Counted from the whole stretch's first letter, positions 53,450-54,851 are shown. The stretch: 59,726 nucleotides of DNA, filler included, from Jimgerdemannia flammicorona (GCA_003990765.1; 2 parts of 2 records of this genome joined end to end with filler, not necessarily neighbours in it), one strand, 5' to 3'. The notes: generated from the letters alone by a model not told the origin. Made by a program: numbers and translations.

Positions 53450-54851
53450 ATGTCCTATGACCAGCAGGCTATCTGTCTGGACCATTCTCTAAGGAATATA
53501 GCACCAGCAACTACTCATCCATAAGACTTTTGAAGTCAGAGGAGTTTAAACCATCAACTGATTGATCAAGATCAGAATCAGGTCCTTTTTCTATATGAAG
53601 GGAGCAATCCTTCAAAATACAAAGAGAAGATGCCAGCCCATAAATACCACTTTTTGACCCCTTGCCAGAGGTTATGGGATCAGCAAATTTTTCAGGACTG
53701 GACCAATGAATAAGGATGCTCAAGAAGATCCTTATTCAGGAGGAAGATATAATGGTGACTCCAGAATGATGACATCAGCACAGGAGACAGTCTTTCCTTA
53801 CAAGTCACCAGATCGGAGTACAAGAAGATCATACAGCAGATAAGATAAGCAATGATGACCAACTGTGAGTCATTGTGACCACAGTACAAGCATCCTGAGG
53901 AATATAAAAGAAGGATCAAGGAACTACAGTAACAGCAACCAACAAGACCCACAAATCCCAAAATAGCTCAAAGACTCACTATAAACAAAATGCCTGCTGC
54001 CCACTAAACCTCAAGATTAAGGAACCACCAAGGCATCTCAGTTGAAGAAAGGATGTTTCAAGACATCAGAAGAGCCATGAGTACCTACTCAAGAAGGACT
54101 CCTAGTATCAACCTAGGTACTAGTGACCCTTATCATTATATCCTCTATCACTATAAAATGGAAACAAGGATCACCATTGCTACCAAATGCCTCCAAATAT
54201 GGCAGGAGTACAAAATAGAAAACCTCCTCTGCTGGGAGTTCCCACAGGCCAGTACTCAAGAACTACAAGATACTACTCTTATAGATATATGAAAAATGAG
54301 GATAGCTAAGAAGATCTATCAGATCTTCAGGCATGCACTATGATTGATCTCCAACTTGGAGTATGTTAGAGTCTCAGATTTCAGAGACCAATCATCCTGC
54401 CATATCAATCCTCTAGAAGCCAGGGTGGCTACAGAAGCCCAGTCTACTACCACCCTCAATAGTGATGAAGTAGAAGACTTCTGGCATCCTATCCTCTAGG
54501 ACAACCCAGACAAATTCCTGCAAGGATTGATCTCAGTATTCCAAGGCCCAAGCATACAGATTAGACCTCCCCCAGACCCCACATTTGTCCCCTATTTTGT
54601 GGAAGAACCTCATAGACTGGAGAGCTCCAGATCTCCTTGTCTCCATCACTGCTGCTGAATGTGATGATATCATTGGTGATGACATCATCCTGCACAATAT
54701 TGAAGCATGCAAAATGTATGATATATGCGAGATGTACAACCTATGTAATGACAATGATGAGACTGATGAGACGTTCATAGACCTCATCTCTCTCAAAGAC
54801 ATTCTGACCTCTGATGATAAAGCCCCTATGGTCTTGAACATTCTGCTCTAA
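53450..54851 (+). pseudogene. Accessory ORF3 of family A copy 2 overlapping PPT and U3
   Basis: One frame from 53450 through 54053-54292 to ~54603 (2-nt deletion), ending MVLNILL* at 54851. In the 5' LTR, listed ORFs 46736, 47042 and 47345 share one frame. Confidence 0.78.

Follow-up and report, generated by a model that had tools for sequence, protein, structure and literature searches.

A conserved reading frame wholly inside the LTRs of a Ty3/gypsy element is probably a self-contained accessory gene

Introduction

Accessory genes set the "complex" retroviruses apart from simple retroelements. In LTR retrotransposons we know of very few, and all of these are in the internal region. In the stretch of DNA analysed here (the window, 59,726 nucleotides with filler included), a first-pass annotation described a Ty3/gypsy element with an accessory ORF of more than 400 codons, which was said to start about 140 nt before the LTR, to read through the polypurine tract (PPT) and to fill U3. 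The question that this locus raises is whether the element really carries such a gene, where the gene begins, and from which promoter it would be expressed. The answer developed below is that there is a real and conserved gene borne on the LTR, that it lies entirely within the LTR, and that, judging from the signals around it, it is probably a self-contained accessory gene with its own promoter. The span considered, 53450-54851, begins where pol ends and closes with this ORF, since pol of the copy concerned stops at 53443-53445.

Two decayed copies of a Ty3/gypsy element

Self-comparison and boundary sequences bear out the first-pass description of two copies of one LTR retrotransposon with LTRs of about 1.57 kb. 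Their parts are as follows.

46494-48062, + strand: 5' LTR of copy 2, 1569 bp, with 90.2% identity to 53748-55314 over 1569 nt
48066-48082, + strand: decayed primer-binding site (PBS) region of copy 2; in copy 1 and in soil contigs, the LTR end is followed by TGGTGCCCATTGG in intact form
50036-50743, + strand: dUTPase (Pfam) between protease and reverse transcriptase in pol of copy 2
53443-53445, + strand: pol stop codon of copy 2, pol ending in ...CEVLVCKS
53446-53736, + strand: non-coding spacer between pol and PPT, which includes the start region proposed earlier and in which copy 2 lacks 11 bp
53737-53747, + strand: PPT CAGGAGGAAGA, directly before the 3' LTR of copy 2
53748-55314, + strand: 3' LTR of copy 2, 1567 bp; loose ends of soil contigs fall at 55314 and soil-run depth drops past 55335
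20618-22165, - strand: 5' LTR of copy 1, from self-comparison and boundaries
17343-18308, - strand: dUTPase of copy 1 (Pfam, E=1.6e-22), likewise between protease and reverse transcriptase
13926-14920, - strand: copy 1, 3' LTR, first portion, interrupted by an insertion
8039-13925, - strand: poly(A)-ended retroposon within the ORF of that LTR, with a 17-bp duplication on either side and an RVT_1 match at 9947-10477
7472-8038, - strand: second part of the 3' LTR of copy 1, holding the last ~25 codons of the ORF

The 3' LTR of copy 1 is in two parts because of the 5.9-kb poly(A)-ended insertion. The inserted retroposon has 65% identity to 25741-29770, and in both stretches the + strand is strongly skewed (G-C skew -0.4 to -0.48). 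Target-site repeats of GTAG surround copy 2 and repeats of ATAT surround copy 1, and the LTRs of copy 1 are ~88% identical to each other.

The Pfam domains found along the element are, in order, zf-CCHC (E=1.4e-5), aspartyl protease (E=6e-4, a weak match under the Pfam cut-off), dUTPase (E=1.9e-23), RVT_1 (E=3.4e-11), RT_RNaseH_2 (E=4.8e-17) and Integrase_H2C2 (E=2.1e-15). With its LTRs, target duplications, PBS, PPT, CCHC-type gag and the order PR-RT-RNase H-IN, the element is, by its sequence features, a member of the Ty3/gypsy group (Metaviridae). Excerpts of PMC2864245 report a dUTPase between PR and RT for some fungal gypsy elements, and gypsy elements bearing a dUTPase are described from fungi and rotifers in excerpts of the same paper and of PMC5408684.

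The differences between the copies in the four-LTR alignment are nearly all transitions, and the CpG observed/expected ratio is 0.02-0.07 in the elements as against 0.9 in the gene-bearing stretch at 31-42 kb. The pattern of decay fits deamination at methylated CpG sites of repeats, and not RIP of the classical, CpA-directed kind. Bimodal CpG methylation of transposons has been described in one arbuscular-mycorrhizal fungus, according to excerpts of PMC8647823. Related contigs in four soil runs mostly have G or C where the window reads A or T, and so the window copies are the decayed ones. The soil runs contain thousands of short contigs from this element family, and seven sequencing runs have matching sequence, each at a small share (0.05-0.17).

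The background of the window is AT-rich (26-32% G+C). Copy 1 appears to be inserted into an older, very AT-rich gypsy relic (2251-7471 and 22166-22950, + strand), which has 64-69% identity to the pol of the element studied here and in which tblastn of family members found no trace of the LTR ORF. A cluster of ORFs with the Crinkler N-terminal domain occupies 30681-38006 on the - strand, with three strong matches (E=4e-19, 2e-20 and 2.2e-18) and one weak match, in a stretch of normal CpG content (observed/expected 0.9). Taken together, these Crinkler-domain ORFs, the AT-rich background, the CpG-poor repeats and the soil-run contigs suggest that the host is a soil fungus that methylates its repeats at CpG, perhaps an arbuscular-mycorrhizal one. 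The last part of the window, 57869-59726, is a further retroelement fragment; it encodes an RNase H domain of gypsy type (E=7.7e-21) and resembles parts of 8147-9537.

An open reading frame shared by all four LTRs

We aligned the four LTRs and tallied stops per codon column. Between LTR positions 185 and 1106, none of the 307 codon columns in the ORF frame is a stop in all four LTRs, although the single copies have 5, 5, 9 and 3 stops there. In the other five frames, 8, 15, 18, 8 and 8 columns are stops in all four. Given a mean of ~11 shared stops per frame elsewhere, zero in the ORF frame is far from chance, and the claim that this frame is recoverable in all four LTRs stands. The four versions of the ORF are as follows.

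46736-47599, + strand: copy 2, 5' LTR; 287 codons plus TAA (47597-47599), four internal stops, no frameshift
53990-54851, + strand: copy 2, 3' LTR; four internal stops, a 2-bp deletion near 54603, TAA at 54849-54851
21099-21926, - strand: copy 1, 5' LTR; 275 codons, six internal stops
14692 down to 13926, then 8038-7961, - strand: copy 1, 3' LTR; two internal stops, cut by the retroposon, stop codon now TTA

The C-terminal end reads ...MVL(D/N)ILL, which agrees with the ending ...MVLDILL given in the first pass, and the TAA follows directly in both LTRs of copy 2. In LTR coordinates the stop is at positions 1103-1105 of 1567-1569. Private C>T or G>A changes account for many of the stops within the ORF, as the first pass proposed; the stops upstream of the ATG are common to all copies. 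Soil contigs carry an extra AG at 54603 that mends the 2-bp frameshift (614/927 depth, X1). Cover by the soil runs is near zero at 54664-54831, which is the variable acidic tail of the encoded protein.

Two other origins for the open frame were tried and rejected. An antisense gene is out, as the reverse frames contain 8-18 stops common to the four LTRs, and a Gag-derived origin is out, as the tblastn matches of family members are the four LTRs only. A reverse-strand frame across the LTR start (53692-53967, - strand) has 0, 0, 1 and 1 stops in 62 codons, which is probably chance at such a length.

The ORF starts inside the LTR

The first 185 nt of the LTR contain 61 codons in the ORF frame, and four of these are stops in all four LTRs (TGA, TGA/TAA, TGA and TAA). 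Because of these four shared stops, the ORF does not cross the PPT. At the three TGA sites, the 12 copy-by-site instances include no CGA and no CAA. Decay of an ancestral CGA should have yielded CAA about as often as TGA, so the absence of CAA disfavours CGA as the source of these stops. The fourth shared stop is a TAA in a non-CpG context. At position 53847 nearly all related soil contigs have a G (988.9/995.3 depth, X1), which gives TGA and retains the stop. In both 3' copies there is an additional stop (GAA TAA) between the ATG proposed earlier and the PPT.

Past the last shared stop, the first ATG comes at LTR position 243 (46736 and 53990 on the + strand, 21926 and 14692 on the - strand). 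Residue 1 of P0005, an intact relative from environmental data, aligns exactly with this ATG in 4/4 LTRs, and residues 1-271 of P0005 match the copy 2 5' LTR ORF at 46736-47599 (tblastn). P0005, P0012 and P0013 all begin with MPxxR at the same aligned position, which fixes the start. In place of more than 400 codons across the PPT, the alignment supports an ORF of 287 codons in copy 2 or 275 in copy 1. The upstream start MPKYKGK is largely refuted as well, with at least five shared stops between its ATG (15062 in copy 1) and the LTR ORF. That ATG falls within an 11-bp stretch that is absent from copy 2 and kept in other soil-run copies.

Relatives and coding signature

Intact relatives of the ORF product were found in environmental data, with lengths of 138-342 aa and pairwise identities among themselves of 28-80%. 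A word-indexed search gave five proteins at E<=0.01 among 129 candidates; they are 161-271 aa long and 62-79% identical to the window copy P0002 (E 3.6e-113 to 3.4e-32). The source of each is a JGI or ENA environmental assembly, with contigs of 778-1625 bp, and none has a Pfam domain; two extra cluster members widen the range of source contigs to 720-2375 bp. An exhaustive profile search of 1.84 billion representatives gave seven matches at E<=0.001, of which five belong to the family (P0004, P0011, P0012, P0013 and P0014) and the other two were discounted as low-complexity repeat proteins. In alignment A2, most members have 42-80% identity to P0005, the three distant ones 42-47%, and P0014 28%. 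As a query, P0013, which comes from a contig of 4.8 kb, returned itself only. The longest member has 342 aa, and no longer or fused form was found among 2424 candidates of 476-2000 aa, which is weak evidence. We regard these proteins as a small, previously unnamed protein family.

A scan of viral contigs and a first scan of metagenome contigs found no member of the family. A second metagenome-contig scan found L001, a contig of 1535 bp with an intact ORF of 291 codons. Seven in-frame stops lie within 375 nt upstream of its ATG, and over the ORF span its own frame has one stop (the terminator) versus 6-22 in the other frames. L001 resembles the window copies at the protein level, and its flanks no longer align with theirs except for ~24 nt before the ATG. 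L001 also has a direct repeat of 33 nt (82% identity), with one unit at 170-202, upstream of its TATA box, and the other at 1481-1513, ~230 nt past the ORF stop.

When L001 is compared with the window copies codon by codon, the identity of nucleotides is 0.50-0.52 at the first position, 0.67-0.69 at the second and 0.37-0.40 at the third. Protein-level matches reach 1e-30 to 1e-50 where the non-coding flanks fail to align. An in-frame indel bias had been proposed as a check; lineage indels, those common to both LTRs of one element and hence older than the insertions, are of 3, 39 and 6 bp in the ORF and of 40, 22, 3 and 1 bp after its stop. Between the elements, 40 substitutions are fixed in the ORF, 10, 12 and 18 of them at codon positions 1, 2 and 3, in an underpowered comparison of four LTRs where most divergence arose after insertion. 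They comprise 18 synonymous and 22 non-synonymous differences (one of the latter a stop), a ratio that differs only weakly from neutral and to which parallel CpG decay adds noise. The extent of the ORF, its conservation as coding sequence and its place wholly within the LTR are thus established by the alignments and relatives described above.

The encoded protein

In close members of the family the N-terminus (first 60 residues) is basic. The tail is strongly acidic, with motifs of the type DLISF, DLINF or DLIIF. The four intact members have a pI of 4.5-4.9, and their 19-residue Kyte-Doolittle hydropathy maximum is 0.59-0.74, far below membrane-like values. The first-pass view of a protein with an acidic tail, a basic N-terminus and no transmembrane segment, and so not Env-like, is confirmed. 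Conserved motifs in the core are WxEYEI, AKKxHQxFRH, WNPxLxDxPDQxLQ and FxGPxI, and VLNF(L/T) is conserved near the protein end. The core is predicted with low confidence to be helical; the mean pLDDT of the AlphaFold2 models is 33.7 with 9 sequences and 50.3 with 13.

Searches for known domains or folds gave little. Pfam returned nothing significant for the window copies and, for the 13 family members at E<=1, three chance-level families only. A profile search against PDB sequences gave 0 matches at E<=10, Foldseek of the model against the PDB gave no match at E<=0.001, and the best hit of the ESM Atlas (score 0.83) has no named family. The best Z in the wide VIA-align search was 5.1, for a single long helix, which we read as meaningless. 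The acidic tail and basic N-terminus are compatible with the role of a transactivator such as Tat, Tax or Tas, without being specific for it, and the Pfam and PDB-sequence searches found no homology to these retroviral transactivators. The tail motifs LISFE and an SSDEDE-like run may resemble clathrin-box and phospho-SIM motifs, which serves as a lead only.

Promoter and terminator signals in the LTR

The LTR contains the following signals around the ORF.

46649-46656, + strand: TATA box 1 of the copy 2 5' LTR, 87 nt before the ORF ATG; it reads TATAAAAA in this LTR and TATAAAAG in the other three
53903-53910, + strand: TATA box 1 (TATAAAAG) of the copy 2 3' LTR, at LTR position 156
54868-54948, + strand: 35-bp tandem repeat, 2.3 copies, just past the ORF stop and enhancer-like by position
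55078-55085, + strand: TATA box 2 (TATAAATA), at LTR position 1331
55105-55110, + strand: AATAAA poly(A) signal, at LTR position 1358, with ~205 nt left to the LTR end

In L001, TATAAAAG is the sole TATA-like match in 1535 nt and lies at -80 from the ATG, compared with -87 in the window LTRs, and the ~24-nt leader before the ATG is alike in both. The 35-bp array is present in copy 1 as well, with a range of 2.3-2.5 copies. No second TATA box was found in L001 in the 284 nt past its stop.

The tandem repeats, TATAAATA and AATAAA follow each other in that order at LTR positions 1121-1363. Such a group of enhancer, TATA box and poly(A) signal resembles the U3/R junction of retroviral LTRs, and this resemblance favours a cassette with its own promoter in U3. 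Conservation of TATA box 2 and AATAAA among the window copies says little here, because the copies are 82-90% identical over the whole LTR. In the arrangement that these signals suggest, the ORF would be transcribed from TATA box 1 into an mRNA of ~1.2 kb that ends at the LTR poly(A) signal, and TATA box 2 would drive the genomic RNA. With TATA box 2 as the genomic promoter, the ORF would be part of U3. For the encoded protein we would guess a regulatory or adaptor role in the service of the element, for example as transactivator, anti-silencing factor or copy-number sensor.

We hold it to be an even call that this arrangement is right as a whole, that is, that the LTR contains a complete gene with its own promoter in U3 and a product that is a conserved acidic protein, with the regulatory or adaptor role as a guess within it.

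Alternative readings

Two alternatives accept the gene and differ in what it is to the element. TATA box 1 could be the sole promoter of the element, and the ORF would then lie in an R region of ~1.2 kb, as the first cistron of the genomic RNA and the only cistron of transcripts polyadenylated early in the 5' LTR. TATA box 1 and the leader are indeed the only promoter features conserved with the distant relative L001, which lacks a second TATA box in the 284 nt past its stop. However, Gag would sit ~1.5 kb past the cap, behind an ORF of 287 codons, and LTR positions 1121-1363, with the repeats, TATAAATA and AATAAA, have the look of an ordinary junction between U3 and R. We know of no R region of ~1.2 kb, and we consider this placement of the ORF unlikely. 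We also think it rather improbable that the ORF is a passenger, a host gene captured into the LTR together with its own promoter and not serving the element. The cassette does have a TATA box and leader of its own, independent of the frame of the element; the distant relatives L001, P0012, P0013 and P0014 may lie outside any LTR; and the older related gypsy relic in the window is without a trace of the ORF. Against capture, the frame has been kept through in-frame indels between two element lineages, and also in several relatives of 60-80% identity that are most likely LTR-borne themselves. In addition, all database members are environmental, and none has an NCBI or UniRef source that would mark it as an annotated host gene.

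The remaining two alternatives concern the ORF itself. In the first-pass version, it exceeds 400 codons: it would begin ~140 nt ahead of the LTR, cross the PPT and, in the manner of nef, be expressed from an RNA that is spliced or subgenomic. The upstream ATG and its 11-bp context are present in copy 1 and in other soil-run copies, and this ATG is in phase with the LTR ORF if the private 11-bp deletion of copy 1 is allowed for. The stops common to all copies between the two, the MPxxR start shared by three relatives, the seven upstream in-frame stops of L001 and the lack of any relative longer than 342 aa (the search at 476-2000 aa, which was blank, is weak evidence) all speak against this version, and we give it very little credence. 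Still harder to believe is that there is no gene at all and that the open frame is a by-product of conserved regulatory DNA or base composition. Single copies have open stretches of ~100 codons on the reverse strand, and the protein models are of low confidence. But codon-position identities of 0.51/0.67/0.38, protein matches of 1e-30 to 1e-50 despite non-coding flanks that cannot be aligned, and reverse frames with 8-18 shared stops in all four copies are not what such a by-product would leave.

Comparison with known systems

With the complete gene under its own promoter in U3 as the preferred reading, the closest known layout is that of MMTV sag, a superantigen ORF in U3 of the LTR of mouse mammary tumour virus. 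Both are ORFs of ~300 codons that lie wholly within a long LTR (>1.2 kb) and are present in both LTRs, and both need expression by a route other than as the first cistron of the genomic RNA. If TATA box 2 is the genomic promoter, then a very short R and a poly(A) signal in U3 would be further likenesses to MMTV. Sag, however, is a type II membrane glycoprotein, while the 13 family members have no Pfam match to Sag and the hydropathy maximum of 0.59-0.74 in four members leaves no membrane anchor. The carrier also differs from MMTV, being a Ty3/gypsy element without env, probably of a soil fungus.

In HIV/SIV nef and foamy-virus bel/bet, the accessory ORFs at the 3' end start ahead of the LTR and extend over the PPT into U3. 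The LTR ORF shares with them a position at the 3' end and sequence in common with the LTR. It is not nef-like, because its start lies inside the LTR, 243 nt in and after four shared stops, and Pfam gave no homology. The nef/sag-like layout of the first pass thus survives in its sag half, as the ORF fills most of the LTR, and falls in its nef half.

Besides gag and pol, LTR retrotransposons can have further genes, mostly of obscure function, such as the aORFs of plants, the ORF3s of bdelloid rotifers and the "add. ORF" drawn for some fungal chromoviruses (excerpts of PMC2864245, PMC5408684 and PMC7264820). According to these excerpts, such ORFs occupy internal positions, either ahead of gag or in the interval from pol to the 3' LTR, in contrast to a whole gene in the repeat as here. 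A term search of the plant aORF review (PMC7264820), within the part of its text covered, found no mention of an ORF in an LTR. In the literature searched, which excludes most subscription journals and supplements, we came across no account of a gene located within the LTR of a retrotransposon. An accessory protein with a function is the CERV protein of Cer1 in C. elegans, which is described in an excerpt of PMC10309623 as acting post-transcriptionally, in nuclear export of the genomic RNA; compared by description, it is an example of a possible role only.

What an LTR-borne gene would mean

A gene that lies wholly in the LTR is present twice per insertion and persists as solo LTRs, so its dose would track the genomic history of the element. 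If the cassette is complete within the LTR, both LTRs and any solo LTR could express the ORF. A bolder version, which we offer as a tentative idea and think more apt to fail than to hold, is that the LTR is itself the gene: every LTR, solo ones included, would be a cassette of promoter, ORF and terminator, and the dose of the product would follow LTR number and feed back on the element. If so, the feedback might work by activating the element or countering its silencing, or by limiting copy number; such an accessory gene would be without a described counterpart among retrotransposons of the fungal Metaviridae.

With this work a new orphan protein family is named, as one more variation on accessory genes in retroelements. 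Should the host be an arbuscular-mycorrhizal fungus or a soil fungus of similar kind, the gene would be a candidate for how the element copes with methylation and small-RNA defences.
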